Positions 1,393 through 27,458 of a stretch of DNA of 44,926 nt are shown piece after piece (the first letter of the stretch is position 1; every line of letters begins with the position of its first letter). Position numbers and translations under genes: made by a program. The notes beneath the pieces were generated by a model that saw nothing but the letters and a program-made list of their open reading frames with translations, did no database searches and was not told where the DNA came from. The stretch comes from a virus. The stretch is from IMG/VR virus record IMGVR_UViG_3300045119_000122, positions 1-44,926 of that record; one strand, 5' to 3'.

Positions 1393-1477
1393 GCTAGTCC
1401 CCTTTCTCTTCTATATATGGGTGCGAGTGGTGGGCCTGTCGCTACTTTGCCCCTTACTTAATAGTCTCGCGCGCGTG

Positions 1478-1507
1478 ATTCTAACCCGGTTTCGCCTTGG
1501 CCGTCTA
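1478..1507 (-). promoter_or_regulatory. Candidate sigma70-type late promoter (TAGACG-18-TAGAAT on the minus strand)
   Basis: Hexamers read by eye in the divergent intergenic region upstream of gene 670..1392. Confidence 0.25.
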
Positions 1508-1774
1508 GTGTTTTTACCTGTTACTAACTTGTCTGTAACTAACCGCTATCTATTATTTAACTAATCTAGCTAACCACTAGGGGTACTGTTCGTAATTCTG
1601 GGGGTCCGCCCATGACAATCTACCTTAACTCATTCTTGTTACTTTTGTCACCTCTGTTAGTTCTGTGGGTGTTTTAAAAAACTTTAGTAAATTTTGTCAG
1701 TGTCCTTAGGATTTTAGGCACATGCAAACTTAAAAAAGGTCCCCTACTCCCCCACCTTTGATACTGAGACTCAC

Positions 1775-1803
1775 TTGCCAATAAGAACCATTCGTGTTAT
1801 GAT
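1775..1803 (+). promoter_or_regulatory. Candidate sigma70-type early promoter TTGCCA-17-TATGAT
   Basis: -35 at 1775-1780, 17-nt spacer, -10 at 1798-1803. It sits upstream of the ORF starting at 1841. Confidence 0.45.
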
Positions 1804-1840
1804 TACGGCTGAGTTCAATACACAGGGAGAATATATTACC

Positions 1841-2005
1841 ATGAGTAGCACAATAGAGTTAGTTGTAGCATGCCTGGTAGAATGTGTGACTAGTTTGGCC
1901 CCAGTAGTAGGCGCTGGTCTGGTAACTTGGCTCAGTTACTGGCTCACTATTCTTAATCTGCGCTTTCTGCTAGTGGGGGTAGGTAGCAGGATAGGTAGGA
2001 AGTGA
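1841..2005 (+). CDS. Small hydrophobic (membrane) protein, 54 aa
   Basis: Internal ATG of track ORF 1775..2005, preceded by GGGAGA. The longer start would overlap the candidate promoter. The sequence is strongly hydrophobic. Confidence 0.4.
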   Translation: MSSTIELVVACLVECVTSLAPVVGAGLVTWLSYWLTILNLRFLLVGVGSRIGRK

Positions 2006-2046
2006 GGAAATTTGTGATTTTGCCTGCATTTTCCCAATTATTTCCC

Positions 2047-2074
2047 TTGACAGCCTACTCAACTAGACTAGAAT
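2047..2074 (+). promoter_or_regulatory. Near-consensus sigma70 promoter TTGACA-16-TAGAAT
   Basis: TTGACA at 2047-2052, 16-nt spacer, TAGAAT at 2069-2074. It lies 47 nt upstream of the first ATG of the early gene string. Confidence 0.6.
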
Positions 2075-2120
2075 TACCAGTACCGAAACAGCTGGCCCAA
2101 GTGGGCAAAAGGGAGCTAAG

Positions 2121-2234
2121 ATGCAACTAGATACAGATTGGTTTGACGTAGTAGCAGGTTTGGTAATGACTGCTGGCTTGATTGGTGGATTGCTTTATGT
2201 AGCCAGCATTTACGGCAGTATGATTGCAAGTTGA
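2121..2234 (+). CDS. Small membrane peptide, 37 aa (MQLDTDWFDVVAGLVMTAGLIGGLLYVASIYGSMIAS)
   Basis: ATG preceded by GGGAG. One hydrophobic helix. Too short for the ORF track. Confidence 0.4.
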   Translation: MQLDTDWFDVVAGLVMTAGLIGGLLYVASIYGSMIAS

Positions 2235-4131: not shown

Positions 4132-4304
4132 TGCAGTTGCCTGTCGGACAGACTGACTGTTATTTCAGTGTAGTTAACAGATTTACAACGGCAGACTTCA
4201 GTTTAATTAAGCACATGATAGTAGACAAAGTGCTGAATGGTTGGAAAGTTGGACTTGAGCAAGATATGAAAACTAAAGAATACACTCTTTATTGGGGAGC
4301 CTAA
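4131..4304 (+). CDS. Hypothetical protein, 57 aa
   Basis: TAATG overlap with the upstream stop. Ends 1 nt before the next ATG. Confidence 0.45.
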   Translation: MQLPVGQTDCYFSVVNRFTTADFSLIKHMIVDKVLNGWKVGLEQDMKTKEYTLYWGA

Positions 4305-4305
4305 T

Positions 4306-4491
4306 ATGATCCTTGCAGCCACCAGCGTTAAAGTATTTATGTTTGTCACGTTTCTTTCCACCGGCTCAGAGGTAAAGTATCAGTTTGATACTGAAGCCAA
4401 TTGCAAAGCTGCAATGCCACCAGTTGTACAGTTGTATAAGTCTTTAGGCGACAAAGTTAATGTGAGCTGCATTGTCGTCGAGCGCAGCTAA
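4306..4491 (+). CDS. Small protein with an N-terminal hydrophobic/signal-like segment, 61 aa
   Basis: Track ORF. GGGGAG SD. Followed by a terminator. Confidence 0.55.
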   Translation: MILAATSVKVFMFVTFLSTGSEVKYQFDTEANCKAAMPPVVQLYKSLGDKVNVSCIVVERS

Positions 4492-4519
4492 CCTAACAAT
4501 ATCGCTAAGTCACATATTC

Positions 4520-4546
4520 AGCCTGGACTAACAATCCGGGCTTTTT
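4520..4546 (+). terminator. Rho-independent terminator
   Basis: AGCCTGGA/TCCGGGCT stem (one mismatch), then TTTTT. Confidence 0.6.
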
Positions 4547-4555
4547 AATGTCTGC

Positions 4556-4966
4556 ATCACGTCCGTCCGGTCACGACGCGCCGACCGTCCGACGGACAAA
4601 TTCTAAACCCCCTCCTCCCCCATGCCCTCCCTCTCCTACTACCACACTCTCCTACTATCTATCTCTCTACCTATCTCTATCTCTCTACCCTCTTAAAATT
4701 CACCAGTAAGAAAGAAAAATTCTTTTGTTTAAAAAACATAGGGGATACAAAACTATACGCAATCCAAGGATATAATATTAACTAACTTTTATTACTTAAC
4801 TTACATTCATTAATTTAATAGGGGGTATAAGTAGGCAGTGTGCGATAGGTAGGGCTAGTGGGGTAGTTAGTGGGTTAGCTAGTAGGTGGTAGATCGGGGG
4901 TGCAGGGGAGGGGGATGTGTGATATCGTCCGTCCGACCGACCGCGTGACGTGACGCGTCCGTCCGA
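4556..4966. other. Composite intergenic element: C/T-rich left arm, AT-rich core, G/A-rich right arm, flanked by CGTCCGTCCG repeats (candidate origin or control region)
   Basis: CGTCCGTCCG at 4560-4569, 4926-4935 and 4956-4965. Palindrome GTCCGACGGAC at 4587-4597. C-runs at 4608-4640. G-runs at about 4821-4915. AT-rich core at about 4694-4820 containing TATAAT (4771-4776). Confidence 0.6.
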
Positions 4967-4991
4967 TTAACCACTAACTAAGAGAACTGTT

Positions 4992-5429
4992 ATGTCTAGC
5001 TTGTCTACTAAGGTACGTCCTACTTTCACACTTGCAGAAATGCGCTTACTAGCACAAGGTATGGAGTTGCTACTTAATCGACATATTCAGGCTGGTGATT
5101 TTAATAATCCAATCTTGCTAGATATGATTAGAATTAAAGACTATTGCGGTGGATTTGTTCCAGCAGTGTCTAAAGCAAATGAGCAATCTAAGTTAGCTGC
5201 TTACATTCAGATGCAGGGTATTGAAACTTCTATTCCGCAAGGTACTGCTATTATCCAGCCTTTGGAAACTGGCAGTATCGAACTAACAGACGATCAAAGA
5301 TATGATCTTTTAAAACTGCGGGATGAATCTACATACAGTGACGAAGATAAAGTATTCATGCTTAATGTAGGCACTCTTATTATGATGCGTCGTGCTGGCA
5401 TTAATACAGTTACTGAGTCAGACCTGTAA
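4992..5429 (+). CDS. Hypothetical protein, 145 aa. Ends ...TVTESDL
   Basis: Track ORF. Bracketed by two large structured non-coding elements. Confidence 0.7.
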   Translation: MSSLSTKVRPTFTLAEMRLLAQGMELLLNRHIQAGDFNNPILLDMIRIKDYCGGFVPAVSKANEQSKLAAYIQMQGIETSIPQGTAIIQPLETGSIELTDDQRYDLLKLRDESTYSDEDKVFMLNVGTLIMMRRAGINTVTESDL

Positions 5430-5479
5430 TGCAATTGAGAATCATTCTCATCCTCATTACCCTGTCACACATTATTCCA

Positions 5480-5680
5480 GGCTCGCCCATCCTTTCCCGC
5501 GTACCCGCTAAGCTAGCTTATCCCAACCGATTCCAAGTCAAGCACCCACACAACAAATTCAGCGCGCCGGGCTTCGCCCTATGCTATAATTTGTAGGTGC
5601 TAGGGCGGGCTTGACTTTGAACCTTGCCGGTTGGGGCGCTACGCCTTAACGGTCACGGGGTTGCGGATAGCCGAGCCGCC
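5480..5680. repeat. GC-rich palindromic element, variant copy D
   Basis: Shared blocks are GCTAGCTTA(5512-5520), AAGTCAAGC(5535-5543)/GCTTGACTT(5609-5617), apex GGGC-TTC-GCCC(5569-5579), GCTAGGGC(5599-5606) and GGGGCGCTAC(5633-5642). Outer stem CCAACCG/CCGGTTGG. Confidence 0.65.
5582..5590 (+). promoter_or_regulatory. Extended -10 element TGCTATAAT inside the apex of element D
   Basis: Exact TGnTATAAT match. No good -35. It lies 135 nt upstream of gene 5725. Confidence 0.4.
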
Positions 5681-5724
5681 CCGCTACTAGCACACACGCT
5701 AACTAACAGAGTGAGATACTAGAA

Positions 5725-6021
5725 ATGGCAATATCACAGCATCAAGTACCTAAGAAATTAACTACCGGAATGGCAGTAGTTGCTTATTTGCCACCGACAC
5801 ATAGAATTGCAGGAATAGAAGCTAGAAATGGTGTAAGAGTAGGCAAATGGTTCAAAGCAAGTATTTATCAAATTGACTTAGATATGTACACAATTCAAGT
5901 TGGTAATATCCTTGTTGCATTACCAAAGAATCTTGTAATTCTGGTGCGCTCCACCAGTTGGAATGACAGTGATGCAAAGGTGCGAGCAGATAAACGTAAC
6001 GCAGTAAGAAATAGAAAGTAA
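5725..6021 (+). CDS. Hypothetical protein, 98 aa
   Basis: Track ORF. Confidence 0.6.
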   Translation: MAISQHQVPKKLTTGMAVVAYLPPTHRIAGIEARNGVRVGKWFKASIYQIDLDMYTIQVGNILVALPKNLVILVRSTSWNDSDAKVRADKRNAVRNRK

Positions 6022-7694: not shown

Positions 7695-9479
7695 ATGAAT
7701 ATGAAAGTGGAATCACCCGTAGAAAAACTGAGACGGCTAGCCCGTGAATCCCGCGAACGCCGAGAGGGTGTAGCAGCAGCGCCACTAGATAACACTAAAA
7801 TAGCAGAAGCATTACAGGAACTGGCTGCACCAGAACCTAGTTTCAACGGTGTGCCTTACACTGAGCGCCAGTTACTAGCCATTACTTACGCAACTCAAGG
7901 TGCCAGTTTTTGTATGACTGGTGCAGCTGGTACTGGTAAAACAACCACTACCCGCGGAGTTGTGTCTGCACTAATTCAAAGTAATAAGATTCCAACTCTT
8001 AAGATTACCCACAACTATCTAAGTTCTGGTACGTCCGGAATAGTAGGCTGTGCATTTACTAACAAAGCTGTGCAGAATATCAAGCGGGTAATGCCAAAGG
8101 ATCTGCAAGGTAACTTCATCACTATTCACAAACTACTAGAATTCCAGCCTGAATACTGGGAAGAGTATGATGATGAGAAAGGTAAAGTAGTTACCAAGAT
8201 GGAGTTTAAACCATCTCGTAATAAAAACAATCCACTACCAGAAAGTCTAAAGGTACTGATAATTGAAGAAGCTACCATGGTTTCTATTGACTTATGGAAT
8301 ATGCTATTTGACGCGCTACCAATCGGCGGCAATATTCAAATCATTCTGGTAGGTGACATTCAGCAGTTACCGCCAGTATTTGGTAAGTCTATCTTTATCC
8401 ACGCAATGCAAGTCGGCATTAAAGTAGTAGAACTAGATCAAGTTCACCGGCAAGCGCTAGATTCACCGATCCTAGAACTAGCGCACCGTGTGTTGTCCGG
8501 TAAGATCATTCCCGGAGTAGAGCTGAAAGAGTGGAACAAAGAAACTTCCAGCGGTAAAGTTACTATTGTGCCATGGAAAAAGTCACTGACTCCTGAGATT
8601 GCAGTGCGTAAAGTAGCGAAAGACTTTCTACCTAATGCAATTAAGGAAGGTACATACCATCCATTTGAGGATGTTGTGCTGTGCCCGTTTAACGTTAACT
8701 TCGGTGTGGTTGAGATTAACAGGCACATTGCTACTTACTTGGCTCAGTCTGAGAAGTGGAATCCAGAAGGTAATCTGGTGTATGAAGTAATTGGCGGAGT
8801 TAATACAAAGTATTTCCGCATTGGTGACAAGGTTCTGTGGAATAAAACTGAGCACATTGTCACAGATATTAAAGTTAACAGTAAATACTATGAGAAAGAT
8901 CCTCAGCTACCAAGTCAGACACTTGATTACTGGGGAACCGAAACTGACGAGCATGCACAAGATGCAATGATGGCATTGCTGGCAGGTGATACCGGTGCAG
9001 GTGATGCGCACAGTAAAAAGATCGATCTGTTACTAGCTTCATTTGACCAGCTGGCAGATAGTAATGGCGAGAAAGCTCAGTCCCGGCAATGCAGTCACAT
9101 TATTAAGGTGCAGTCTAATGACTTTCCAGAATCAGAAATATCTACTAGCGGTGATCTTGCCTTACTTGACTTGGCTTATGCTATTACTGTTCATAAATCT
9201 CAGGGGTCTGAATATCGTAGAGTCTTTTTTGTCACGCACAAATCCCACGCAACAATGTTATTTCGTGAGCTTGTTTACACTGCCATCACGCGAGCCAAGG
9301 AAGAATTGGTAGTTATATGCCCAGACAATCTATTTGTGGCTGGCATTACTAGCCAACGATTGCCAGGTAAGACATTAGCTGAAAAGATTGCAGCGTTTCA
9401 ACGGTATCTGGAAACAAGTAAAGTCTCTAGTACTGAACTGCCGAGAGGCATTGGATTACTTGTTGGTAATGAGGGTTAA
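7695..9479 (+). CDS. SF1 DNA helicase, RecD/Dda-like
   Basis: Walker A GAAGTGKTTT, Walker B LIIEEATMVS, motif III ILVGDIQQLPPV, C-terminal AITVHKSQGSEY. Confidence 0.85.
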   Translation: MNMKVESPVEKLRRLARESRERREGVAAAPLDNTKIAEALQELAAPEPSFNGVPYTERQLLAITYATQGASFCMTGAAGTGKTTTTRGVVSALIQSNKIPTLKITHNYLSSGTSGIVGCAFTNKAVQNIKRVMPKDLQGNFITIHKLLEFQPEYWEEYDDEKGKVVTKMEFKPSRNKNNPLPESLKVLIIEEATMVSIDLWNMLFDALPIGGNIQIILVGDIQQLPPVFGKSIFIHAMQVGIKVVELDQVHRQALDSPILELAHRVLSGKIIPGVELKEWNKETSSGKVTIVPWKKSLTPEIAVRKVAKDFLPNAIKEGTYHPFEDVVLCPFNVNFGVVEINRHIATYLAQSEKWNPEGNLVYEVIGGVNTKYFRIGDKVLWNKTEHIVTDIKVNSKYYEKDPQLPSQTLDYWGTETDEHAQDAMMALLAGDTGAGDAHSKKIDLLLASFDQLADSNGEKAQSRQCSHIIKVQSNDFPESEISTSGDLALLDLAYAITVHKSQGSEYRRVFFVTHKSHATMLFRELVYTAITRAKEELVVICPDNLFVAGITSQRLPGKTLAEKIAAFQRYLETSKVSSTELPRGIGLLVGNEG

Positions 9480-9998: not shown

Positions 9999-10027
9999 TT
10001 GACGCGGGGGGCCATTTGAGAGACAAT
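9999..10027 (+). promoter_or_regulatory. Candidate promoter TTGACG-17-GACAAT embedded in an 8-bp GC inverted repeat
   Basis: -35 at 9999-10004 and -10 at 10022-10027. CGCGGGGG(10003-10010)/CCCCCGCG(10030-10037) flank the spacer. Confidence 0.35.
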
Positions 10028-10779: not shown

Positions 10780-11482
10780 GTCAGTAGTGAAGTTTGTCCG
10801 CGCAGCCGTTGTGCACAAACCGAGTACGCCAGCAACTTCACAGTGAGGACGAGGAAAAGATACTACAGTTGTGCTAGCGTATCTACTGAGCCGCAACGCA
10901 GGATATTCGTACCTTACCTAATTTAACCCGCCTTTCCTAATTGGATTGTGCGGGTTAAGTCAGTAGTAGGGTTTGTTAGTATCTGCTGTGAGTACGGGTT
11001 CGATCCCCGATAAGCTATTATGCTGAATATGCTGGTGCATAGATAAGACGTAAGACTCAGGGTTGGATTCCCTGCACTAACTTACTTTACTAATCGGAGA
11101 AAGTACCAGAACTAAAAAGACTGGGAAATGCTGAGTATTCCAGACGAATTTGAGCCGGGCACTGGAAGAGAATCTAAAAAGCCCCTTAAAGATTCGGGTC
11201 GGCGGTCACTGCCGCGAAGTTGGTTAGGTCTTATGTCACGGTGAGTTACTAACCTCAGTAGAAAGTGTGACAACAATTGCGTAGCAGACAAGGAAGTTAA
11301 AGGAGACTAAGTTATAGATACTACCCGCTAAGGCTGGTATATACCCTCCTGCTACATGTGGTCGCTGCGCCACGTTAAATCCAGCAGCAACTAATTCAAA
11401 GGTACGCACGCTAACAGTGCTATCTAAAACTGCCTCAGGTTAGCCCAATGCGAATTGGTAACTAGCACTGGGGCTTTTTGTT
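10780..11482 (+). ncRNA. Candidate large structured non-coding RNA region (class unknown)
   Basis: About 700 nt with no credible ORF in a compact genome. Many local hairpins, for example GTGAAGTT(10787-10794)/AACTTCAC(10834-10841), AGATAC(10857-10862)/GTATCT(10878-10883) and CCAAT-GCGA-ATTGG (11445-11458, GNRA loop). Also T-arm-like GGGTTCGATCCCC. A T-run at 11475-11479 is a possible 3' end. Strand and ends are inferred. Confidence 0.35.
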
Positions 11483-11498
11483 GCCACGAGGAAATTAA

Positions 11499-16653: not shown

Positions 16654-16736
16654 CAGCATCAGCACCGAGAGTTTTTAATCAAGTCAGCAATGACGCTGCT
16701 TTGCTTAAGAGCTTTGAGAGTAACAGGAGTCATAAG

Positions 16737-19106
16737 GTGACTAGTCAAAGTATTGCAATAACCAGGCAGAACCGCGAGGTAGCTGCTAAGAAAAACATTC
16801 TACTCTGGGTAGATTGGGAAGACAAGCCATATGTATCTAAGCTGAGCAAAGTATTTGCTTCGGCAAACATTCGCGTGCATGATGGTGCACCAGAAGCGTT
16901 AGAGATTGTAGCTAAGGCTTGCAAGGATAAAGGGTTTACCAGCATTGTAACTACCAGACTAGATGTTCTGATTAAGTTACTGCCAGCTGGGCGCGTACAG
17001 AAAGCCAAGATTAAAAACTACACAGGTAGTTTAATTCCATTCTGTGGTGTGGAGTTTCTAATCCTGCCACCGCTGAAGCAGCTGGTTACAGTTGAGTATG
17101 GCGAATGGATGGTTAAACATCTGTGTGGTAAGGTACTGTATCCAGAGAAGTGGCGTAAGACTTCTGAGTTTCGTTGGTGGCTAGTAGAGTCAGGCTCTGA
17201 CTTTGTTAAAGCGCTTAACCGTCTGGAGCACTGTGACTTAATCTCGGTGGATACTGAGACAGTCCGGAATCCACGGCCAGCAATTGAGTTGGTACAATAC
17301 ACTGGATTTAAGTTTGCGACTAACGAGTCTTGGACTTATGTAGTGCCAATGAACAAGATGGAAGCTGTTAAGTTCATGCGGCAAGCCAATGCACTGGACG
17401 TACCTAAGGTATTACAGAATGGTAAGTACGACTGTGCTTACTTCTTTGCTTACAGCGCACCATTGACGGCATACTACTATGATCTCAAGAATGCAATGCA
17501 CGCCCAATACTCAGAGCTCCCAAAAGACTTGGCATTCAGTTCGAGTATTTGGATTAGGGAAATTATGTATTGGAAAGATCTGTCAAGTTCTGGAGATTCC
17601 CAAGACAAGTTTCGGTATGGCGCACTGGATACGTGGGCAACAGGTGAAGCTTTTATTGCCTGGCTTGAGCAAGCACCAGACTACGCTAAGTCAAACTACC
17701 TTGAAGAATTTCTACTTGTTCCCAGTCTCCATATGTGTGAGATGCGGGGGATTAAGCGGGACATGCCAAGGCTATATGAAGCAGCAGAAGCTGGAGCTAT
17801 CAAGCTCGACGCAATCTTGCGTGAAGTCCGTGCACTAGTTGGCAGTCCTAGATTTAACCCCAGCTCGCCAGATCAATGTGTACGTTTAATCTGTGCAATG
17901 ACTGGCGCTAAGTTGCCAGACAAATCAATCAAAGTTAAGGACATGACTCCTGAGCAAAAGCGGGAGCGCCAGTCCTCAGCTGAGAAAGCGATTGTAAAAG
18001 CTAGTTATGCACACCCACTTAACGAACGAGTGCTTGGTAAGATTCTTGAGTATCGTGGATTGCGTAAAGAATTGAGTACTTACTTACCATTAGCCGAGAA
18101 AGCTAAAGAGTTTGGTGCGGGAAACCGTGCGAGAATTCTTTACTCACTTAACCCTGATGGTACTGACAGTGGCAGGCTTGCATCTAAGTCTCACCATTTC
18201 TGGTGTGGATTGCAGATTCAGAATATCAGTTCTGATGGTGCCTGCAAATCAACTTTAATCGCTGATGATGGATTCCACTTTGGTGAAGCAGACTACTCCC
18301 AGGCTGAAGATCGTGGAGTTGCCTTCAGTTCTGGTGATCCTGCCTTGCTAGATATCTTTGAGCGTGGAGTAGACAGCCATAGTTTCAAAGCTGCAATGTT
18401 CTTTGGTATGCCGTACGAAGAGATTTATCAGGCAGCAACTCCAGAGTATATTGATGAAGCCACTGGTGAGATAATCCCAGCAAAGAAAAAGAAAGTATTG
18501 CAGCCTGACATTCGTCAGCTAGGCAAACGTATTAACCATGGCGCAAACTACAACATGGGTGCACAAGTTCTATTAGAAACTATGGGCCCTAAAGCAACTC
18601 GTGAAGCTCAGAGACTTCTGAAACTTCCTGCTCGCTATACACTGATTGAAGTATGTAAGTATCTTCTGCTGTGTTACGAGAAAGCATTTCCGACTGTAAA
18701 GACTGATTATTATAGAAGCATTAAACTGCAAATTAAGCAAACTAAAATGATGGTGTCAGATACCGGATGGGTGCGCTACTGCTTCGGCGATCCCGAAAAA
18801 AGTAAGCCAGCTCTGAATAAGTATGTGGCACATAAGACTCAAAACTTAAACGCAATGATCCTTAATAGAGCCTGGCTAGTTATATTCCGCGAGCTAGGTT
18901 TTAATCCCAACTTTAAACTCCTCGCTCAAATCCATGACTCGATCCTGTTTCAGTACCGTATCGGACACGAATACTTAGCTGAACGAGTCAAGGAACTAAT
19001 GACATTCCCTGTACCAATCACGGACTGCAAGGGAATCACAAGAGACTTAATAGTCCCGGTTGATATCAAGTTACTGGGACGTACTTGGGCAGGTACAAAT
19101 GAATGA
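16737..19106 (+). CDS. Family A DNA polymerase with a 3'-5' exonuclease domain
   Basis: Exo I SVDTET, Exo III YGALDTWA, motif A ADYSQAEDR, motif B RQLGKRINHGANYNMG, motif C QIHDSILF. The GTG at 16737 follows AGGAG. The track start at 16701 is a TTG. Confidence 0.9.
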   Translation: MTSQSIAITRQNREVAAKKNILLWVDWEDKPYVSKLSKVFASANIRVHDGAPEALEIVAKACKDKGFTSIVTTRLDVLIKLLPAGRVQKAKIKNYTGSLIPFCGVEFLILPPLKQLVTVEYGEWMVKHLCGKVLYPEKWRKTSEFRWWLVESGSDFVKALNRLEHCDLISVDTETVRNPRPAIELVQYTGFKFATNESWTYVVPMNKMEAVKFMRQANALDVPKVLQNGKYDCAYFFAYSAPLTAYYYDLKNAMHAQYSELPKDLAFSSSIWIREIMYWKDLSSSGDSQDKFRYGALDTWATGEAFIAWLEQAPDYAKSNYLEEFLLVPSLHMCEMRGIKRDMPRLYEAAEAGAIKLDAILREVRALVGSPRFNPSSPDQCVRLICAMTGAKLPDKSIKVKDMTPEQKRERQSSAEKAIVKASYAHPLNERVLGKILEYRGLRKELSTYLPLAEKAKEFGAGNRARILYSLNPDGTDSGRLASKSHHFWCGLQIQNISSDGACKSTLIADDGFHFGEADYSQAEDRGVAFSSGDPALLDIFERGVDSHSFKAAMFFGMPYEEIYQAATPEYIDEATGEIIPAKKKKVLQPDIRQLGKRINHGANYNMGAQVLLETMGPKATREAQRLLKLPARYTLIEVCKYLLLCYEKAFPTVKTDYYRSIKLQIKQTKMMVSDTGWVRYCFGDPEKSKPALNKYVAHKTQNLNAMILNRAWLVIFRELGFNPNFKLLAQIHDSILFQYRIGHEYLAERVKELMTFPVPITDCKGITRDLIVPVDIKLLGRTWAGTNE

Positions 19107-20415
19107 GCAAGCCAGAGTCAGTAGGCTTAGAGTCAGTGACAGTGACAACCCATACGTTAATCCTGACGGATCGACAGACTTCTTTAACGATTACATTACG
19201 TACACAGGGGGAACAGAAGTCCCAGCTCACGCTAACCGTTGGTCAGCAATCGGTATGCTGGGAGCATGGCTTGGAAGGGATATTTTCATTAGATACGGAT
19301 CATCTAAACTCTATGCTAATCAGTATATCATGCTACTCGGGGAAGCGGGATCAAAGAAGTCTACCGCTATTAAGACAGCTAAGCGAACTCTTAAGGCTGC
19401 TGGCTATTCAACATTCTCAGCTGAGAAAATTTCAAAAGAGAAATTCTTAGAAGAGTTATCCAAAGATAAATCTGGTGGAATGGAATCCAGTTTCACACCA
19501 AACATTCTAGATCAACAACTCTGGGGAGACTTGGATGAATCAGATTACAGGCAAGTCTGGGTTACAGCTGATGAATTCAATGAGTTCTTTGCCAACAACA
19601 TTCTTGAATTCTGCTCCACGCTCGGCAACCTGTGGGACTACGATGGGATATACGAGAACTCTGTTAAACACGGAGCCTCAGTTGTTATCCCTAACCCCAC
19701 TGTTAGCATTCTTTCCGGTAACACGCCAACAACTTTTGCTGGGACATTCCCCATCGAAGCAGTTGGACAAGGATTCTTCAGCCGAGTTCTGGCAGTCCAT
19801 ATTAAAGGATCTGGACGCAAGATTATTAGACCTAGAGAACCCTCAGAAGCAGAGACCGAATCAATCATTGCTAGACTACTGGAGATTAAGAACTACCACA
19901 CAGGGGAAGTTACCATCACGGAAGATTCCTGGGCTTTACTAGATAGGATATACCAAGCATGGAAACCAATCCCAGATTCTCGATTCATATCTTACGGAGG
20001 TCGGCGAGTAACTCACCTGTTGAAACTCGCACTGATACATGCAGCTTCTAGGCTTAGTAAAACTATTGATCCGATTGATATCCGTCGGGCTAATACTGTA
20101 CTTGATTACACAGAACACTTTATGCCAGAAGCCTTTGGTGAATTCGGAACATCCCGAAACTCTGGGATGACACATAAGATTCTTAAGGAACTGGAGATTT
20201 CAGATGAGTTACTTAACATTCATGATCTGTGGGCTAAGGTACAGCTAGACTTTGATAAGCTAGACAGTTATCAGAGTCATGTGATGGGTATGATACAAGC
20301 AGGTAAAATCCAAATGGCAGGTGACAAGTTGTTACCGGCTAAGCGGGTACTTAAAACTCCGGTAACTGAATATCTTGATTACCGGTATATGGTTGATGAA
20401 GAGCGTGGGGCGTAA
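19099..20415 (+). CDS. P-loop NTPase, putative replicative (SF3/D5-like) helicase
   Basis: Walker A GEAGSKKST, Walker B-like WVTADEF and motif C-like ILSGNTP. The ATG overlaps the polymerase stop (ATGAATGA). Confidence 0.5.
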   Translation: MNEQARVSRLRVSDSDNPYVNPDGSTDFFNDYITYTGGTEVPAHANRWSAIGMLGAWLGRDIFIRYGSSKLYANQYIMLLGEAGSKKSTAIKTAKRTLKAAGYSTFSAEKISKEKFLEELSKDKSGGMESSFTPNILDQQLWGDLDESDYRQVWVTADEFNEFFANNILEFCSTLGNLWDYDGIYENSVKHGASVVIPNPTVSILSGNTPTTFAGTFPIEAVGQGFFSRVLAVHIKGSGRKIIRPREPSEAETESIIARLLEIKNYHTGEVTITEDSWALLDRIYQAWKPIPDSRFISYGGRRVTHLLKLALIHAASRLSKTIDPIDIRRANTVLDYTEHFMPEAFGEFGTSRNSGMTHKILKELEISDELLNIHDLWAKVQLDFDKLDSYQSHVMGMIQAGKIQMAGDKLLPAKRVLKTPVTEYLDYRYMVDEERGA

Positions 20416-22364: not shown

Positions 22365-22400
22365 GCCCCGGTTCAGACTCGCATCTGCCGGGGCATTTTT
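22365..22400 (+). terminator. Rho-independent terminator of the plus arm
   Basis: GCCCCGG(22365-22371)/CCGGGGC(22388-22394), then TTTTT. Confidence 0.7.
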
Positions 22401-22449
22401 ACGTCTGCTGGAAATGTATGAAACTAACAGACAGTGTAACTAGAGCGTC

Positions 22450-22618
22450 GGCGCGCCCCCGCCGTAAGGGGATGCCGGCAAGGCGAAGCGTCACGAGGCT
22501 GTAGCACTAAGTCAATCACGCCTAGCGTAGGCCCGAAGGGCCGTAGCGGCTGATTGATCTTAGGGCAGCCGAGTGGTAAGCTAGCCAGGGCGGCAAGCCC
22601 CGTAGGTGGGTAGCGCCA
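22450..22618. repeat. GC-rich palindromic element, copy B (inverted relative to A, C and D) at the convergence of the two arms
   Basis: Reverse complements of the shared blocks: GGCGCGCC(22450-22457), AAGTCAAT(22509-22516), GCCTAGCG(22520-22527), apex GGCCC-GAA-GGGCC(22530-22542), TTGATCTT(22554-22561), GTAAGCTAGCC(22576-22586) and GCGCCA(22613-22618). Confidence 0.8.
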
Positions 22619-22628
22619 CAGAAACTAA

Positions 22629-25600
22629 CTAGAATCCATTAGCAGTCTCATTACTCAAGTCATCCCTACCACCTAACAACTCCTGCATGTATCTACTGTA
22701 CGGACTATTTAATCCATTGGCCAAAGCTTCTGCCCTACTCCTATCCGTATTTTTATACTGTTCCATAAACCAACTATTAAATCCAGTCTGCCTACCTCCC
22801 TTCTCCATATACTCCTGAGCAAACTTCCCAATCTGCTCAGAGTCTACACTACCACCTCCCTGTAAATTAAGTTTCAGCGCAGTGCCAAGCCGCTGCCTCT
22901 TCTCCCTATCTGCTGCCATATAACCTTGAACTCGGAAATAAGCATTAGATGTGATTGCCTCGTCAATTGGTTTAGCACCAGCAAGTCTAGTTAATGTGCC
23001 CCAACTTGCAAGATCATTAGTTCCCAAGATAGTTCCGTTAGCTTGAGTGCTTGTGACCTTACCATCCTCATTGGTAAATGCTCTAGCAGTCTGAGCCATA
23101 CCAGCCAATGGCCGGCTAAGTCCCATATGCTCTACACCATTAAGGAATGAGTTCCAAACTGGAGCACCGCCACTAATATCACTTAAGGTTTGTTTAGTAG
23201 ATCCAAACACTTTTGCGAAAGCGGAGATGAAAGGGATATCTCCAGGGTTAGTTGGGTTGGGAACAATACTCCAGGTTCTTGGGTTAGTGTCACCACGGGT
23301 AAACAAGGAAGCTCTAAGGACATTTGATGGGGCACCAAACATAAGCCAATCGGCACCTGCCTTACCGAAGATTGTATTGGTTGCACTGTAAAGATCCTTG
23401 TGTTCTGGATTGCCACTAGCGTTACCAACCAAGCTAGTATTAATCAAGTTGAATCCCGGCAAGCTAGATGCACCATACACACTGCCTTGCAAACCTGCTG
23501 CCATTGCTACTGCCTTACCATTACCTTCACCAATATAGCGGAACATCTGTTGCATCAAGTTAAATTGGTAAGATTGAAACAATCCCATTGCCTGACCAAT
23601 TGGACCTTGGAACATTAGTGGCCGCTCCGCTGCACGAATTACTCCGTTAACTCGATTCACAAAAGTATTCACATAAGCCCAGCCAACTTTCTCGTCAATT
23701 ACTCCAGCCTTAACTCCTACCTCAGTAATCTGTTTCATTACATCAGCAGTAATCAACCGGTTAAATTGTTCAGTCCAGCGGTTACCAGTAAACTTCTCAC
23801 CATACTTACCAAATGATTCCCAAGCCGCACTAAGCTGCTCAGACTTCTTAGACATATCATGGATACTTTCTTTACCAGTCAATGTCATAGCATCAAGTGA
23901 TTTGTAATACTGGTCACTGAGATCAGGCAACAATCCACGCAACTTGTATTCAGCTAGCAATGCTTCCCTTCCCTCACCGTGCAATCGTGCTAGACTATTT
24001 GCAATGAGCTTACTTGGAGATTTAATCAAGTCTCCTTCAACTCCTGGCACACCGATCTTCATGATCTGTGCTAGCTGACCTGCACCCTCAACACTTCCTT
24101 TCTCAATAGCGCCAGTAAGCGACTTCAACTCTGCACTAAACAAAACTGTATTACCCAGCAAGTTGTTCAATGCGTTAAATGGATCAAGCCGCAAAACTGT
24201 AGTAGTTAGAAATGCGTTAGACTTACGAATAAAACTAGTAAGCGTTCCGCGTGGCACACTGCTATTTGCCATAATGTTTGTAGCTGCATCATAGTAAGCA
24301 GTTTTAAATCCCAGTTCCTCAAAGACATTGTTAATCATCTCCGACTTCTCAGGAGTAAACTTACCTCCCTGACTAGTAAAGATGCTGGTAGCTTTGTCCC
24401 ATGCTTGGCTGACATACCGATCCAATGACTGATTAAGTGTATTCAGCAAAGGAACTTCGTCAATCTTAGTTATGTTAAGCATTGCCTTGACTTGCGCCAA
24501 GTACGGATTCTTATCGCTGGAAGTCACTACGTCGGTAACAGAATCCTTACCGGTTTTACTGCCAGCCACGTTAGTGAATTGATCACCCAGGCGTTTAAGT
24601 TCATTGGTTTCTTTTTCATACTTGGCAAGAACCATTTGCTTAATGAGTGTGTTCTCTTTAGCTGTATGATCTGCGAGCCAGCCGTTAACGATCTTACCGG
24701 GGTCGGTCTGCGGAAAGAATCTGGAACTAATTCCCCGTGAAACCAGATCATGGTCAATGTAGTTATCATGAAGTGTCTTGTCATAAATGTATTCCCCACG
24801 AGCATTGTAAAATTCTTCACTCTGCCCTTTAGTATATACTTTATATTCACTAGGAACTTTTGCAATCTGATCTTCCAACTCTTTACTGCTATTGGCAAAC
24901 AGCATTTTAGTGTGCCCAACACCAACAAGAGTTTCATCTTTAACAAAGGCTACATAACGATAGTCTCGTGGATTAGGACGAATTACCTGCCAAGTATCCA
25001 GAGCCTTATTATCTGTGTTACCTTGAACTGCATTAAGTTCTTTCCAACTCTGGTTGCGAGTACCATTCAATGCAATATGCAATTCCACTGCCTGCTTTAA
25101 CTCAGGAGAGTCTAGCAGAATTTCTTCTGGGGTTCCTTTAGCAAGCTCAACTGGTTTAACACTCTCACCTGCATCTAATGCTCGTTGATAGTCACGAATC
25201 TTTTGTGGAATCAGTGCATGTCCAGCGTCAGATAATACAAACTTCTCAGGTGTATTGGCAATGATTTCATTGATTGTACTGAACTTAACTGCAGCCTGTG
25301 GATTCTCAACCAACTTCAATGCAGCTGGATTAATCATGTCAGTGAGCTGGCTAATTTTAGTGCGGGTCAATTCACTGGTAAGGTTACCAATGTAACTGGT
25401 CATTGCTTCAAGTGAGCCATAGCTGCCACCAGCGTTAGTAAATACTCCTGCACCTGTGCCCGTACGATTGGCTGAGCGCAACAGATCCTCACTAATCTCT
25501 GGAAATGCTAGTCCAAGATCTCCAGCATAGTTTACAAATACTTTATTCGTAGCCTCGTTAGCAACCTTCTCACGATACTTAATAAGCGCCATACCATTAA

Positions 25601-27458
25601 GCTCGTGCCCAGCTTCATCAGATACTTTAGTAGTATCGTAGGTAGCCTTTGCAAATCTAGGTTTCAAATGCAGGTCAGCCTCAGACACAGGCTTACCAAG
25701 AAAATCTGAAAGCTCCTTGGCATAGGATGCTTGAGCGTTAAAGTTAATTACCGGATCAGACGACTTGGCAGTGCCCTCAATAAAATCACGACGAACATTA
25801 CTTGCCAATTCCATAAAGTTAGTTGGATGTTTTAATTTCCGCTGTGCTTCAATTACTTCAGCTTGAGCTTCTTGGTAATACTTTTTAATCTGATCCTGCC
25901 CAACTAGCAATCTGTTATCCAGACTGTTTTTACTGCCGCCAATTGTGATTGAATCAGCTTTATCACGAATTGCTTTATCCAGCATTGGCAAATCATGAGT
26001 ACCAATAACTGAATTTTTATTCAATGGCAATGTGTTGCTGCGAGCATTGTACCAACGCAGTTCAACATCGTCAGCATTCTTAACTGTGCGAAAATCTACA
26101 CGATCGTTAACACTGGTTTTAATTTTAGCAGCTTTAGACTGAATCTGCTCAGGCTTAAATTTATCTGCCATCCGTGGAATACCCACAGTGCCACCAGAAG
26201 TTTCGCCAATGGTGCCAGAGTGCAATCTAATATTTACAAATCCTTCGTCATCAATTTGTTTAGCTGCTTGCAGTTTAGTTTTAGCAAGTCCCTGCTTAAC
26301 AAGATCTTTTACCCGAGTCTCGAAGGAGCTAGCCTCAGAAACGCGAGTAAGTGTTTTCATATTCTGAAAGGTTTCTTGAGTTCCTTTCGGTCCAAGTTTA
26401 GAAACAATGTCAGCAAAATCATTACCCAGTGCATCATCACCTGCCAGAGTCCGGACATGTGTCCTTACATCATTGTCAAGTTTCTGGATATTGTTTTTAC
26501 GAAGCGTGTTAATCTTAGTTGCTTCAGCCTGAATAGCCTCAGCTGTAAGACTCTCACCAGTTTCACCCTGCGCAATCTTAGCTGCCTTAACTTCCTCGAC
26601 TGTGATATCACGAGCCAGCAGTTGTTTATCATTTGCAGCTGCCACAATTTTATCTGAGATATTGGTCTCAGCTGTACTCGAACTCAACTGTGTAGAACTT
26701 ACTGCAGCTTTCTGTCGAAGATCTGCATTACCAAGAAGTTTCTTAACTCCGAAGTAAGTTCCAGCACCGGCGCCAATTGCGCCAATGCCGCCACCGATCA
26801 AGGTACCAAAACCAATATTCTTAACAATATCACTAAAATCCATACCCTCCATTACTGGAGACTTGAACATGGTGGCAGCTACAGCAGTTTCAAATGCAAG
26901 AGACTCAAGAATTCCTTGCTGTGTACCAGCGGCCAGAGCTTTCAATGCATTGGTGTTAGCAAAGCTAAAGCTAGCAGATTTGCCAGCCAAGTCAGCAGCT
27001 TCCCGCTTAACATATGTCTCCATTGTTGGAGCCAGCAGGTTAGTGGCGAAGCGGAGATTGCTCCCCACCTCACCGGTAGCTGCAGCACGTAATGCACCTT
27101 GACCTGCCTTAAGTGCCTTAACTCCAATCAACCCTGGAACCAAACTAGTGCCAACAAATCCTGCAAGATCCGCGGCAGATTTATTCTGCTCGTAATACTT
27201 GCCAAGATCATCATCATAGGAAGAGATTAATTCACCAGTATCGCTAGTATCAATCTGATTATCTTCATCCCTAAATACATTACCAATTGCAGCGCCAGTA
27301 TTATAAAATGAATTTAATCCTGATGCTACAGATACTGCCAGGAAACTGGGTACATTACCCAGAGTCTCAGCAATATCATCAAACACTGACGAGTTATCTG
27401 CTGCAACGTTGTGAGCATCCGCTGCTTGCAGAAAGTTAGGAGCTTCATCGAAATTCAT
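22629..27458 (-). CDS. Very large internal virion/ejection protein, 1609 aa
   Basis: Size and position (last gene of the late arm, after two other internal-protein-like genes) match T7 gp16-type core proteins. No catalytic motif recognised. Confidence 0.6.
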   Translation of the reverse strand: MNFDEAPNFLQAADAHNVAADNSSVFDDIAETLGNVPSFLAVSVASGLNSFYNTGAAIGNVFRDEDNQIDTSDTGELISSYDDDLGKYYEQNKSAADLAGFVGTSLVPGLIGVKALKAGQGALRAAATGEVGSNLRFATNLLAPTMETYVKREAADLAGKSASFSFANTNALKALAAGTQQGILESLAFETAVAATMFKSPVMEGMDFSDIVKNIGFGTLIGGGIGAIGAGAGTYFGVKKLLGNADLRQKAAVSSTQLSSSTAETNISDKIVAAANDKQLLARDITVEEVKAAKIAQGETGESLTAEAIQAEATKINTLRKNNIQKLDNDVRTHVRTLAGDDALGNDFADIVSKLGPKGTQETFQNMKTLTRVSEASSFETRVKDLVKQGLAKTKLQAAKQIDDEGFVNIRLHSGTIGETSGGTVGIPRMADKFKPEQIQSKAAKIKTSVNDRVDFRTVKNADDVELRWYNARSNTLPLNKNSVIGTHDLPMLDKAIRDKADSITIGGSKNSLDNRLLVGQDQIKKYYQEAQAEVIEAQRKLKHPTNFMELASNVRRDFIEGTAKSSDPVINFNAQASYAKELSDFLGKPVSEADLHLKPRFAKATYDTTKVSDEAGHELNGMALIKYREKVANEATNKVFVNYAGDLGLAFPEISEDLLRSANRTGTGAGVFTNAGGSYGSLEAMTSYIGNLTSELTRTKISQLTDMINPAALKLVENPQAAVKFSTINEIIANTPEKFVLSDAGHALIPQKIRDYQRALDAGESVKPVELAKGTPEEILLDSPELKQAVELHIALNGTRNQSWKELNAVQGNTDNKALDTWQVIRPNPRDYRYVAFVKDETLVGVGHTKMLFANSSKELEDQIAKVPSEYKVYTKGQSEEFYNARGEYIYDKTLHDNYIDHDLVSRGISSRFFPQTDPGKIVNGWLADHTAKENTLIKQMVLAKYEKETNELKRLGDQFTNVAGSKTGKDSVTDVVTSSDKNPYLAQVKAMLNITKIDEVPLLNTLNQSLDRYVSQAWDKATSIFTSQGGKFTPEKSEMINNVFEELGFKTAYYDAATNIMANSSVPRGTLTSFIRKSNAFLTTTVLRLDPFNALNNLLGNTVLFSAELKSLTGAIEKGSVEGAGQLAQIMKIGVPGVEGDLIKSPSKLIANSLARLHGEGREALLAEYKLRGLLPDLSDQYYKSLDAMTLTGKESIHDMSKKSEQLSAAWESFGKYGEKFTGNRWTEQFNRLITADVMKQITEVGVKAGVIDEKVGWAYVNTFVNRVNGVIRAAERPLMFQGPIGQAMGLFQSYQFNLMQQMFRYIGEGNGKAVAMAAGLQGSVYGASSLPGFNLINTSLVGNASGNPEHKDLYSATNTIFGKAGADWLMFGAPSNVLRASLFTRGDTNPRTWSIVPNPTNPGDIPFISAFAKVFGSTKQTLSDISGGAPVWNSFLNGVEHMGLSRPLAGMAQTARAFTNEDGKVTSTQANGTILGTNDLASWGTLTRLAGAKPIDEAITSNAYFRVQGYMAADREKRQRLGTALKLNLQGGGSVDSEQIGKFAQEYMEKGGRQTGFNSWFMEQYKNTDRSRAEALANGLNSPYSRYMQELLGGRDDLSNETANGF

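Follow-up and report, generated by a model that had tools for sequence, protein, structure and literature searches.

A conserved mirror-image DNA element at the early/middle gene boundary of podovirus-like phages

We found a non-coding DNA element of about 400 nt, located at the boundary between the early and the middle genes of a phage genome, whose two halves mirror each other in base composition. In the window, by which we mean the whole stretch of 44,926 nucleotides of virus record IMGVR_UViG_3300045119_000122, a 127-bp end overlap bears out the 44,799-bp circle assumed in an earlier reading made from the letters alone (the sequence-only reading). The mirror-image element is real and conserved; it can be recognized by composition alone and is kept clade-wide. 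The reading that we put first, at a probability of roughly 35%, is that the element is the phage replication origin. It would work as DNA, neither as a gene nor as a strand-specific RNA, and provide a twofold-symmetric site for unwinding and assembly, most likely that of an origin. To our knowledge, the origins and control regions of most uncultured phages are unknown.

Architecture and conservation of the element

The order of parts is the same in every genome (Table 1). An intrinsic terminator is followed by a GC-rich flank, a C-run cluster and a G-free (CCTA)n-like arm, then by an AT-rich core with one conserved polar block and a C-poor (TAGG)n-like arm, and finally by a G-run cluster, a second GC-rich flank and the first middle gene. 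The terminator lies directly upstream of the element, and a counterpart stem with a T run precedes it in all relatives. On the other side, the gene for the 145-aa protein is kept immediately 3' of the element throughout the clade. The element heads the replication gene block, which encodes a helicase, a PD-(D/E)XK nuclease, a Sak4-like protein, PolA and a DUF3987 protein.

Table 1. Positions of the element's parts and related features in the window
Feature	Position	Strand	Description
Intrinsic terminator, end of early operon	4520..4548	+	8-pair stem, 5 GC pairs, T tail; predicted
Left GC-rich flank (IR-L)	4553..4607		Inverted repeat of right flank
C-rich, G-free arm	4608..4695		Outer part, C runs; inner part, degenerate (CCTA/ACTA)n
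C-run cluster, outer end of left arm	4608..4631	-	C5-tcct-C5-atg-C3-t-C3; canonical G-quadruplex motif
AT-rich core	4696..4817		78% A+T (4696-4820)
Central conserved polar block	4738..4776	+	AGGGGAT-N-ACGCAATCC-N-TATAAT
G-rich, C-poor arm	4818..4915		Inner part, degenerate (TAGG/TAGT)n; outer G runs 4896-4914, G5-tgca-G4-a-G5
Right GC-rich flank (IR-R)	4916..4970		Inverted repeat of left flank
First middle gene with CTAACTAAGAGA leader	4971..5429	+	145 aa, helical, no known family
Second C-run 14-mer copy, CCCCTACTCCCCCA	1741..1754	+	Divergent early/late control region; kept there in relatives

The same architecture occupies the same locus in the window and in 10 relatives (11 genomes), with helicase identities of 46-97% (from 83% down to 46% for the 10 relatives) and the sequence of the element almost wholly replaced. 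The clade consists of podovirus-like genomes of about 45 kb that are present in many metagenomes. One relative was found in an assembly of Edaphovirga cremea (Enterobacteriaceae), and the hosts are likely members of the Enterobacteriaceae. A BLAST comparison of positions 4300-5200 (distant mode) and of a 1609-aa gene (near mode) with 50,697 phage records gave no match. Single-protein scans of IMG/VR gave no matches with the 145-aa protein or with the helicase and only large unrelated contigs with the phrog_6726 protein, and GTDB genomes scanned with P0129 or the helicase alignment yielded nothing. The cultured relatives LUZ24 (first 12 kb only), EBPR podovirus 3 and Polaromonas phage Tiera have no such element; Aeromonas phage P5 has a weak C-then-G pair, located in its divergent region.

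Different parts of the element evolve at different rates. Over 4866-4966, which covers the outer G arm and the right flank, the 97% relative L004 carries a single substitution over some 100 nt (about 99% identity), compared with 88-91% identity for the genes flanking the element. This better conservation of outer arm and flank than of neighboring genes argues for purifying selection. The inner arm is fast-evolving, with about 79% identity to the same relative. Such divergence, together with the degenerate tetranucleotide repeats of the arms and the (CGTC)n and (GTC)n runs of the flanks, is what a tolerated spacer would show if microsatellite-like expansion and palindrome homogenization had produced a largely non-functional simple sequence. 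We regard such an origin of the element as very improbable, because these compact 45-kb genomes keep the ordered architecture even where helicase identity falls to 46%, conservation of the outer arm and flank exceeds that of coding DNA, and the central block is both conserved and polar.

Three independent contigs of relatives terminate in the element: L004 and L016, from two samples, have ends no more than 1 nt apart where core and G arm meet, and L017 ends in the right flank. The terminal repeat of phage T7 is bordered by short repeats of the CCTAAAG type. The element might thus be the place where the genome physically ends or concatemers are joined, or a packaging site, a reading to which we give very little credence. 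The early genes would then sit at the far end and face outwards, and the distant relative LUZ24, which has a similar two-block layout, carries its terminal repeat in the divergent region. The terminase genes and the late promoter likewise map to the divergent region. Breaks are equally expected from poor sequencing and assembly of palindromic, fast-evolving DNA with G/C runs.

Composition and stability of arms, core and flanks

The strand bias of the arms is the most extreme in the genome. In 80-nt windows the difference G-C reaches -40 at 4611-4690 and +37 at 4838-4917, against a mean of 0.1 (sd 7.3) and runners-up of -27 and +22. The sequence-only reading had described the left arm (4600-4695) as almost pure C/T; its composition (A17 C46 G1 T32) confirms the near-absence of G but, with 18% A, not the purity. 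The genome's longest G-free run (4625-4705, 81 nt) overlaps this arm, and the C-run cluster at its outer end includes one copy of a 14-mer, CCCCTCCTCCCCCA. The right arm (4821-4915; A19 C6 G49 T21) contains seven G runs of at least 3 nt, in agreement with the minimum of six proposed before. TAG is 3.6-4.2 times over-represented in the G-rich arm with a 4-nt period, and the G fraction rises from 0.40 to 0.68 going outward. C-to-T deamination was not supported as the source of the strand bias, as the G-rich strand contains no fewer A than T, and arrays of Chi sites were rejected (5 exact sites in the window, 0 in the element).

A canonical G-quadruplex motif was defined as four G runs, each 3 nt or longer, separated by loops no longer than 7 nt (G3+ N1-7). 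By this motif prediction, the only one in the whole window lies at 4608-4631 on the minus strand. At the level of sequence motifs, the proposal that G-run tracts on both sides are quadruplex-capable in principle holds for the left side but not for the window's right arm, where there are three close G runs, not four. Among nine genomes, 7 have the motif on the plus strand of the outer G arm and 5 have it in the C arm, on the minus strand. The arms had further been taken for imperfect inverted repeats; they mirror each other in composition and motif only, and the inverted repeats are the flanks. Co-evolution of the arms as inverted repeats was rejected since their complementarity is the same within a genome as across genomes, a test weakened by low sequence complexity.

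The AT-rich core of about 125 bp that had been noticed between the arms was confirmed (Table 1). Of all 100-nt windows of the genome, that of the core forms the least stable duplex (dG -109.2 versus a mean of -133.7, sd 6.5), and it has the low stability of a DNA unwinding element. With the DNA fetched for each relative, the lowest-stability 100-nt window was found at or adjoining the core in L005, L018, L019, L020 and L021, while the core ranks second-lowest in L007 and L022 and fourth in L006. Duplex stability climbs outwards on both sides, from the AT core through the TA-step-rich (TAGG)n tracts and the G/C runs to the CG-rich inverted-repeat flanks.

The central block is the only part of the core with conserved sequence. 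Its consensus is GGGG(T)-about 14 nt-CAAT(C/T), with CAAT invariant in nine genomes (L028 and L029 were examined as well), and its orientation is the same in 11/11 genomes. Comparison with sigma-70, sigma-32 and sigma-54 promoters revealed a likeness in some genomes. The block there resembles a -35/-10 pair, such as TTGAAA-16-CGCAAT in L021 and L022, but the -11 A is always missing and the sigma-32 spacing is off. An inverton was rejected, given repeats of limited complementarity (about 65-80%), the fixed polarity of the block in 11 genomes and no recombinase among the scanned proteins.

The flanks are rich in short motifs. The left one contains CGTCCGTCCG at 4560, GTCACG at 4570, CCGACCG at 4581 and the palindrome GTCCGACGGAC at 4587, and the right one CGTCCGTCCG at 4926 and 4956, CCGACCG at 4933 and 4937 and CGTGAC at 4944 and 4949, so that the three exact CGTCCGTCCG copies, the CCGACCG repeats, the GTCACG/CGTGAC motifs and the palindrome listed by the sequence-only reading were all found, the short repeats far beyond chance. 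With at most 1 mismatch, CGTCCGTCCG has 5 matches genome-wide, all in the element (0.23 expected), and CCGACCG has one further copy outside it, at 39008. The 14-mer CCCCT[A/C]CTCCCCCA, said to be common to the element and another control region, indeed occurs only at 1741 and 4609 (0.01 expected).

The flanks are genome-specific inverted repeats. They pair in the window at 4570-4615 with 4907-4954. Summed over the 11 genomes, the complementarity of each left flank with its own right flank is 194 versus 114 ± 12.7 in permutations (p<1e-5), and the own-genome partner ranks first in 9/11. The repeats within the flanks are simple motifs of 4-7 bp, and flank hexamers cluster there (7/11 genome copies of CGTCCG, for example). 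The motif type varies even among close relatives (CGTCCG, CGTCAC, GTCGTC, GGCACA, ATGGCA), a turnover more in keeping with a paired stem or gene conversion than with classical iterons.

Transcription signals and RNA folding

The most serious rival to an origin, which we hold to be possible but doubtful, is a transcription boundary or control region whose action involves RNA and RNA polymerase. In this reading, Rho would load on the left arm as a rut tract that backs the early-operon terminator, and its mirror on the other strand would be a rut for antisense or read-through RNA coming from the right. The G-rich tract would serve either as a leader immune to Rho or as an upstream element for the middle promoter, and the flanks would be operator-like. 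The element's position, with a conserved intrinsic terminator immediately on one side and the first middle gene on the other, is consistent with such a role. So is its composition, with C 41 and G 1 in 80 nt on the plus strand of the left arm, and C 42 and G 5 on the minus strand of the right arm. Both match the untranslated tract, rich in C, poor in G and at least about 70 nt long, that characterizes Rho terminators, and a ratio of 41 C to 1 G in 80 nt is near-maximally Rho-friendly. Another untranslated C-rich tract is present downstream of the next gene (5449-5528), and the likely enterobacterial hosts possess Rho. The neighboring genes are, however, all on the plus strand, which leaves the leftward mirror rut without an obvious client. 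Termination needs neither genome-specific inverted-repeat flanks nor run clusters, a central block or the least stable duplex of the genome.

Promoter predictions bear on both sides of this question. In L005, L006, L007, L017 and L018 the best sigma-70 promoter (TTGACG-17/18-GACAAT/TATAAT type; predicted) is placed in the right flank at 40-60 nt upstream of the ATG; it falls outside the G arm and is directed away from it. Weaker candidates occur 18-94 nt upstream in L019-L022, and the TTGACG-17-GACAAT type recurs in the window at 9999-10027. These promoters suit a control region, but a promoter in the right flank leaves the G arm untranscribed, which argues against a leader, and the window's own right flank has no recognizable sigma-70-like promoter reaching 8/12 matches. 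The core contains weak, non-conserved sigma-70-like matches across genomes (8-9/12); no conserved or strong outward sigma-70 promoter was found there. The second copy of the C-run motif, at 1741, is followed by a (TAGG)n-type G tract at about 1970-2007, just upstream of the early promoter at 2047-2074. The occurrence of both features at an early promoter hints at a transcription-linked role and speaks against an origin.

On either strand the element folds into a single long hairpin with imperfect pairing (z = -4.5 and -4.4 for RNA, -3.2 for DNA), and RNA folding gave a long-range hairpin with 68-155 long-range pairs in all 11 elements. Such a hairpin, if transcribed from the early operon by read-through or antitermination, could serve as an RNase III site or a self-masking rut between the early and the middle messages, and the z of -4.5 and the co-variation of flank pairing among genomes would fit this role. 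We consider it improbable all the same. A strong intrinsic terminator lies directly upstream in all genomes, and with a promoter within the right flank, as in several relatives, the mature message would not contain the hairpin. The plus strand is the more stable in 3/11 genomes and the minus strand in 7/11, so a function as plus-strand RNA structure was not supported; folding with no strand preference over 11 genomes argues for a DNA-level feature. A search of Rfam gave 0 matches at gathering thresholds in the whole window and 0 at E<=1 in positions 1-23000, and ARAGORN at default settings predicted no RNA genes.

The element as a possible replication origin and known systems

The case for an origin rests on anatomy: the element combines twofold symmetry, the least stable core, GC-rich inverted-repeat flanks, adjoining replication genes and a terminator that shields it from early transcription. 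It does not resemble an origin of the iteron or DnaA type. Nine genomes contain no DnaA boxes and a single IHF-like match, in L006, and neither a defined array of initiator sites nor an initiator protein was recognized. The 145-aa protein has no match in Pfam, PHROGs, NCBIfam or PDB sequences; as a recognizable initiator or regulator it was rejected after AlphaFold modeling, which gave a weak model (pLDDT 70, pTM 0.32), with no fold match at E<=0.001. The sequence-only reading had offered cumulative GC skew as a check. The minimum (1793) falls at the divergent gene junction and the maximum (22613) at the convergent one, four-fold-site skew is 0.104 on either side of the element, and no switch occurs at the element. 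On that check the skew indicates another site, although it is confounded here with gene orientation.

It had also been argued that no primase is recognizable in this genome and that outward transcription from the core would give G-rich RNA in a geometry suited to R-loop priming. The ORF at 19060-20415 encodes the DUF3987 protein, which matches phrog_14296, annotated as 'DNA primase', with E = 4e-72. The presence of a protein of a primase-annotated family removes the need for R-loop priming. The composition is as described, but there is no conserved outward core promoter and the best promoter points away, so the G-rich R-loop transcript is hypothetical.

A possible mechanism is as follows. The predicted left terminator would keep early transcription out of the element, and the right-hand promoter predicted in most relatives would fire away from it. 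A protein may bind the conserved polar block at the easily melted center. As duplex stability rises outwards, opening would begin at the center and be clamped at the flanks. A polymerase, primase or 3'-5' helicase leaving the center would meet identical strand chemistry in both directions: judging from the letters, outward synthesis on either side uses the C-rich, G-free strand as template and displaces the G-run strand. R-loop priming would not be favored over priming by a protein such as the DUF3987 protein. We tentatively suggest a new kind of origin, a compositional palindrome of 400-700 bp in which an AT-rich start zone lies between opposed (TAGG)n tracts and clusters prone to form G-quadruplexes and i-motifs, clamped by its flanks. 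Equally tentative is its operation by two diverging machines that copy a C-rich, G-free template and displace the G-run strand between flanks that are co-evolving inverted repeats. A related variant, which we mention as a possibility, is a bidirectional shield in which Rho and G-run structures bar transcription from a central protein-DNA complex. Opposite-strand G-run clusters, strand-pure arms, a stability minimum and co-evolving inverted repeats are seldom combined in bacteria and phages. If the element is an origin, it would supply a sequence signature for finding origins in related phages; were it a boundary element, it would show strand-specific Rho loading and Rho avoidance in an unusually clean natural form.

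The primary origin of phage T7, formed by the promoters phi1.1A/B and an AT-rich region, lies near the early/class II gene boundary. Similarly, the element is found within a few kb of the presumed left end, where early genes give way to replication genes, and has an AT-rich, easily melted segment adjoining a promoter. In T7, however, the AT-rich region is transcribed and downstream of the promoters, whereas the core of the element is shielded by a terminator and the promoter is mostly directed away. The T7 origin has neither mirror C/G arms nor inverted-repeat flanks, and, unlike in T7, no phage RNA polymerase was recognized among the proteins scanned.

As in ColE1 RNA II and T4 oriF/oriG, RNA made outward from the core would be G-rich on a C-rich template with the G-run strand displaced, a composition known to stabilize RNA-DNA hybrids. 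Those origins are unidirectional and non-palindromic, and the element has no conserved outward core promoter. The HSV oriS/oriL and SV40 core origins share with the element an AT-rich center between inverted elements, and in these and IncQ oriV, where the priming signals ssiA and ssiB lie on opposite strands within a large inverted repeat, twofold symmetry permits two machines to depart in opposite directions. All three have defined sites for known initiators (UL9, T antigen, RepC/RepB'), whereas the flank motifs of the element vary among close relatives and its arms are compositional mirrors, not binding-site repeats. Compared with natural rut sites such as lambda tR1, the element likewise has a long C-rich, G-poor untranslated tract past the end of an operon; this tract is far more extreme, is mirrored on the other strand and is embedded in a palindrome of 400-700 bp.

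A pause or stop site for DNA entry, like the T5 injection stop signal, would let the early genes in to be expressed first and, as a structured, repeat-rich non-coding block behind them, hold back the rest of the genome until early proteins act. By analogy with LUZ24, whose terminal repeat is upstream of its early genes, the left end is probably in the divergent region, which would place the element about 3 kb (6-7% of the genome) away and after the early genes, as expected of such a site. This role is unlikely, though slightly less so than that of an RNA hairpin, and we know of no two-step transfer in phages of this kind. The T5 signal (doi 10.1101/866236) has paired DnaA boxes, a different repeat grammar and a non-homologous sequence, unlike the element, which has no DnaA boxes.

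The element also recalls the G-quadruplex-associated origins of metazoans in having oriented G-run clusters at a fixed distance, about 150-250 bp, from a putative start zone rich in A+T. In metazoans, G-rich repeated elements lie near initiation sites. Those origins belong to a different domain of life with different machinery, and the clusters of the element are paired on opposite strands. If the element is an origin, it would be a bacterial-virus case of oriented G-run elements where replication starts, a connection that has so far been made mostly for origins of metazoans and herpesviruses.

Conserved architecture at the head of the middle genes

The metagenome assembly (Logan run SRR35384759) is circular, with a 127-bp end overlap that leaves 44,799 bp, and looks like the genome of a podovirus-type phage. 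Early and replication genes lie on the plus strand from ~2100 to 22343 and include, besides those in the table, a PD-(D/E)XK nuclease and a Sak4-like ATPase; the minus strand carries the structural genes. The sequence-only reading had recognised no primase, but a DUF3987 protein does match a primase-annotated family. The closest cultured relatives, Aeromonas phage P5, EBPR podovirus 3, Polaromonas phage Tiera and the Pseudomonas LUZ24/119X group, are remote (PolA ~30% identity). The sole host hint concerns the 145-aa protein encoded next to the element: a homologue with 44% identity (WP_411706253.1) is annotated on a 46.1-kb contig of an Edaphovirga cremea (Enterobacteriaceae) RefSeq assembly, which suggests a clade member carried by, or contaminating, that isolate.

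The mirror-composition element between the early and middle genes is real, conserved and unusual. Searching a collection of 5.8 billion proteins for helicase homologues yielded a large clade of 44-46-kb contigs. We took the region from ten further genomes (L005, L006, L007, L018, L019, L020, L021, L022, L028 and L029), with helicase identity from 83% down to 46%, and partial copies from L004 and L016, both 97% relatives, and from L017. Every genome having the region shows the identical order of parts directly 5' of a homologous first middle gene, the one exception being L028, where two short ORFs intervene. Primary sequence is almost wholly replaced between genomes; the only conserved core sequence is a central polar block, GGGG(T), ~14 nt, CAAT(C/T), often followed by TATAAG and oriented identically in all of them. 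No such element is present in LUZ24 (first 12 kb only), EBPR podovirus 3 or Tiera, and phage P5 has only a weak C-then-G pair, located in its own divergent region.

Features of the window, with the parts of the element in their conserved order
Feature	Coordinates	Strand	Description
Divergent early/late control region	1393-2126		
Late promoter (predicted)	1507-1478	minus	TAGACG-18-TAGAAT
Early promoter (predicted)	2047-2074		TTGACA-16-TAGAAT
Part 1			intrinsic terminator
Part 2	4553-4607		GC-rich flank, short CG-containing repeats
Part 3			C-run cluster
Part 4	4608-4695		G-free arm, ~80-130 nt
Part 5	4696-4817		AT-rich core, ~50-150 nt
Part 6	4818-4915		G-rich, C-poor arm
Part 7			G-run cluster
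Part 8	4916-4970		second GC-rich flank
Part 9			CTAACTAA-type leader, then start codon
Non-coding region after the 145-aa gene	5430-5724		295 nt
Dda/RecD-like helicase	7695-9479	plus	
Middle-type promoter (predicted)	9999-10027		TTGACG-17-GACAAT
Region without genes	10927-11498		572 nt
PolA	16701-19106	plus	
DUF3987 protein	19060-20415	plus	matches phrog_14296 'DNA primase', E = 4e-72
GC-rich region	22405-22628		220 nt
1609-aa virion-module protein	22629-27458	minus	

Arms, flanks and core

Every feature listed in the sequence-only reading was found where it had been placed. The left arm (4600-4695) has a single G in 96 bases; it had been described as almost pure C/T and is better called G-free, because 18% of it is A. 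In the right arm (4821-4915) C accounts for 6 of 95 bases, and A+T makes up 78% of the core. The two arms are the GC-skew extremes of the genome, at -40 and +37 in 80-nt windows (sd 7.3; next-ranked windows -27 and +22). All five copies of CGTCCGTCCG, one-mismatch variants included, fall within the element (0.23 expected), and the 14-mer CCCCT[A/C]CTCCCCCA has just two copies, at 1741 and 4609 (0.01 expected).

The arms are degenerate tetranucleotide tracts. Their G-rich strand is enriched 3.6-4.2-fold in TAG, which shows a 4-nt period and totals 201 copies in 18 arms; TGA, TTG, GAA, AAT and AAA are nearly missing from it. The outer 30% of each arm passes into G runs, the G fraction of this strand climbing from 0.40 to 0.68. 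In 7 of 9 G arms this outer cluster matches the canonical G-quadruplex motif on the plus strand, and 5 of 9 C arms have such a match on the minus strand; the sole such motif of the window genome is at 4608-4631, minus strand. Arm-to-arm complementarity exceeds that of shuffled controls, but an arm is no more complementary to its own partner than to the arms of other genomes. The mirror relation of the arms is therefore one of composition and shared motifs, and co-evolution of the two is not detectable.

The flanks differ from the arms in this respect. Complementarity between the left and right flanks of the same genome sums to 194 versus 114 +/- 12.7 for permuted partners (p<1e-5), and in 9 of 11 genomes no other flank scores as high as the genome's own partner. 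The flank motif itself changes from genome to genome (CGTCCG, CGTCAC, GTCGTC, GGCACA, ATGGCA). The flanks are therefore genuine inverted repeats, diverging between genomes and matched within each. No 100-nt duplex window of the genome is less stable than the core (dG -109; mean -134, sd 6.5); by the same measure, within the DNA fetched per relative, the core ranks first or second in 7 of 8 and fourth in L006.

Compared with L004, one of the 97% relatives, ~100 nt of outer G arm and flank differ by one substitution (~99% identity), whereas the adjoining genes are 88-91% identical, which points to purifying selection on the outer part. The inner arm is ~79% identical and turns over rapidly with its composition retained. 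Tolerated simple sequence is a lesser explanation of the element.

Transcription, strand skew and other non-coding regions

All 11 elements fold as one long hairpin. The plus-strand form is the more stable in 3 genomes and the minus-strand form in 7, so nothing here suggests that a plus-strand RNA with G-U pairs is selected for. A strong terminator is predicted just 5' of the element in every genome. From both observations we take the symmetry to belong to the DNA itself; an RNA processing hairpin is a lesser alternative.

Judged from its predicted promoters, the phage appears to use the sigma-70 type. In L005, L006, L007, L017 and L018 the right flank holds a predicted TTGACG-17/18-(GACAAT, CAAAAT, TATAAT) promoter, outside the G arm and 40-60 nt 5' of the ATG; L019-L022 have weaker candidates, and in the window no promoter in this flank has 8 or more of 12 matches. 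The cores give only weak, non-conserved matches in both directions, and the central block, which in some genomes looks like a -35/-10 pair, lacks the -11 A throughout. Promoter predictions therefore lend no support to the outward G-rich transcripts previously envisaged for R-loop priming.

The main rival to a replication origin is a transcription boundary, in which plus-strand transcripts of the left arm, being rich in C, would serve as a Rho-loading tract backing up the terminator, with the G tract tied to the middle promoter. We consider this rather unlikely. A second C-rich tract beyond the next gene (5449-5528) and the (TAGG)n tract 5' of the early promoter speak for it; the mirror arm, flanks and core are left unexplained.

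Cumulative GC skew, proposed as a check of the origin, falls to its minimum at the divergent gene junction (1793) and peaks at the convergent one (22613); it lends no support to an origin in the element. Four-fold-site GC skew is 0.104 to its left and right alike. Because skew follows gene orientation, it is unable to exclude an origin at the element.

The divergent control region, inside which this minimum lies, has a conserved grammar of its own, with counterparts in L006 (4060-4700), L018 (4550-5430), L020 (3190-3880) and L022 (4960-5560). Its late -10 TAGAAT adjoins CGCGCGTGATTCTAACCCGG; it also contains a block AAAAAGTTTAG..GGTTCCTTAGGAT..AAAAAAGGTCCCCTACTCCCCC, a possible small hydrophobic ORF (1842-2005) and the (TAGG)n G tract just 5' of the early promoter. 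Tiera has a ~70-bp tandem duplication with CCCCCCACACCCCTAGCTACCATCCCC in its control region (43960-44090), and the C-run and CTA motifs of control regions may reach beyond the studied clade. CTAACTAA, with stops in several frames, recurs directly 5' of plus-strand RBSs (4974, 5699, 6026, 11508 and others) and looks like a lineage-specific intercistronic spacer motif.

The non-coding region after the 145-aa gene contains, in this order, the C-rich tract, an extended -10 promoter-like TGCTATAAT (~5583-5591) and a GC-rich leader. Its sequence is kept in L005, L006 and L019, with compensatory changes in 5 of 20 predicted pairs. The region may provide gene 5725-6021 with a structured 5' leader or a small RNA. 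The region without genes, gene-free in relatives as well (~400-865 nt), holds T-arm-like GGTTCGATCC sequences and ARAGORN tRNA-like calls, only below the default threshold, at ~10938-11018 and ~11013-11083, possibly remnants of tRNA genes. The GC-rich region lies between a bidirectional terminator (~22365-22398) and the stop of the 1609-aa gene. It is rich in GNRA-like loops, folds as one long hairpin (plus -103 kcal/mol, z = -5.0; minus -89, z = -3.1) and has no Rfam match; we regard it as a candidate structured RNA. The 1609-aa protein lacks Pfam domains, and its similarity to PHROGs is confined to the C-terminal 300 aa (phrog_16165, a function-unknown family); P5 and Tiera encode 1800-aa equivalents.

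A possible replication origin

Three independent contigs of relatives, from three assemblies, break off within the element. Those of L004 and L016 begin where the core meets the G arm (window ~4813), no more than 1 nt apart, and their first 200 nt are identical; that of L017 begins in the right flank. The breaks could be real DNA ends, or places where sequence of this kind is poorly sequenced or assembled. That the element marks genome ends or a packaging site is one of the lesser readings.

Any explanation has to cover the twofold symmetry around a polar centre, the rise in stability from the AT core out to the CG-rich clamps, the strand-pure arms, in which outward synthesis always has the C-rich strand as its template, the co-evolution of the inverted-repeat flanks and the shielding from transcription. 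Most of these features would be accounted for by a bidirectional replication origin or unwinding site. We put this at a probability of about 0.35, as a hypothesis and not a finding; initiation would by default be protein-primed, not R-loop. A T5-like DNA-entry stop signal ranks among the lesser candidates.

Literature searches brought up nothing relevant for phages and no description of such an element, and neither Rfam nor any GenBank phage record matches it. It is best filed as a new variant form of phage intergenic origin or control region, its function being hypothetical. Its place at the head of the replication genes fits an origin and is comparable to that of the T7 primary origin.
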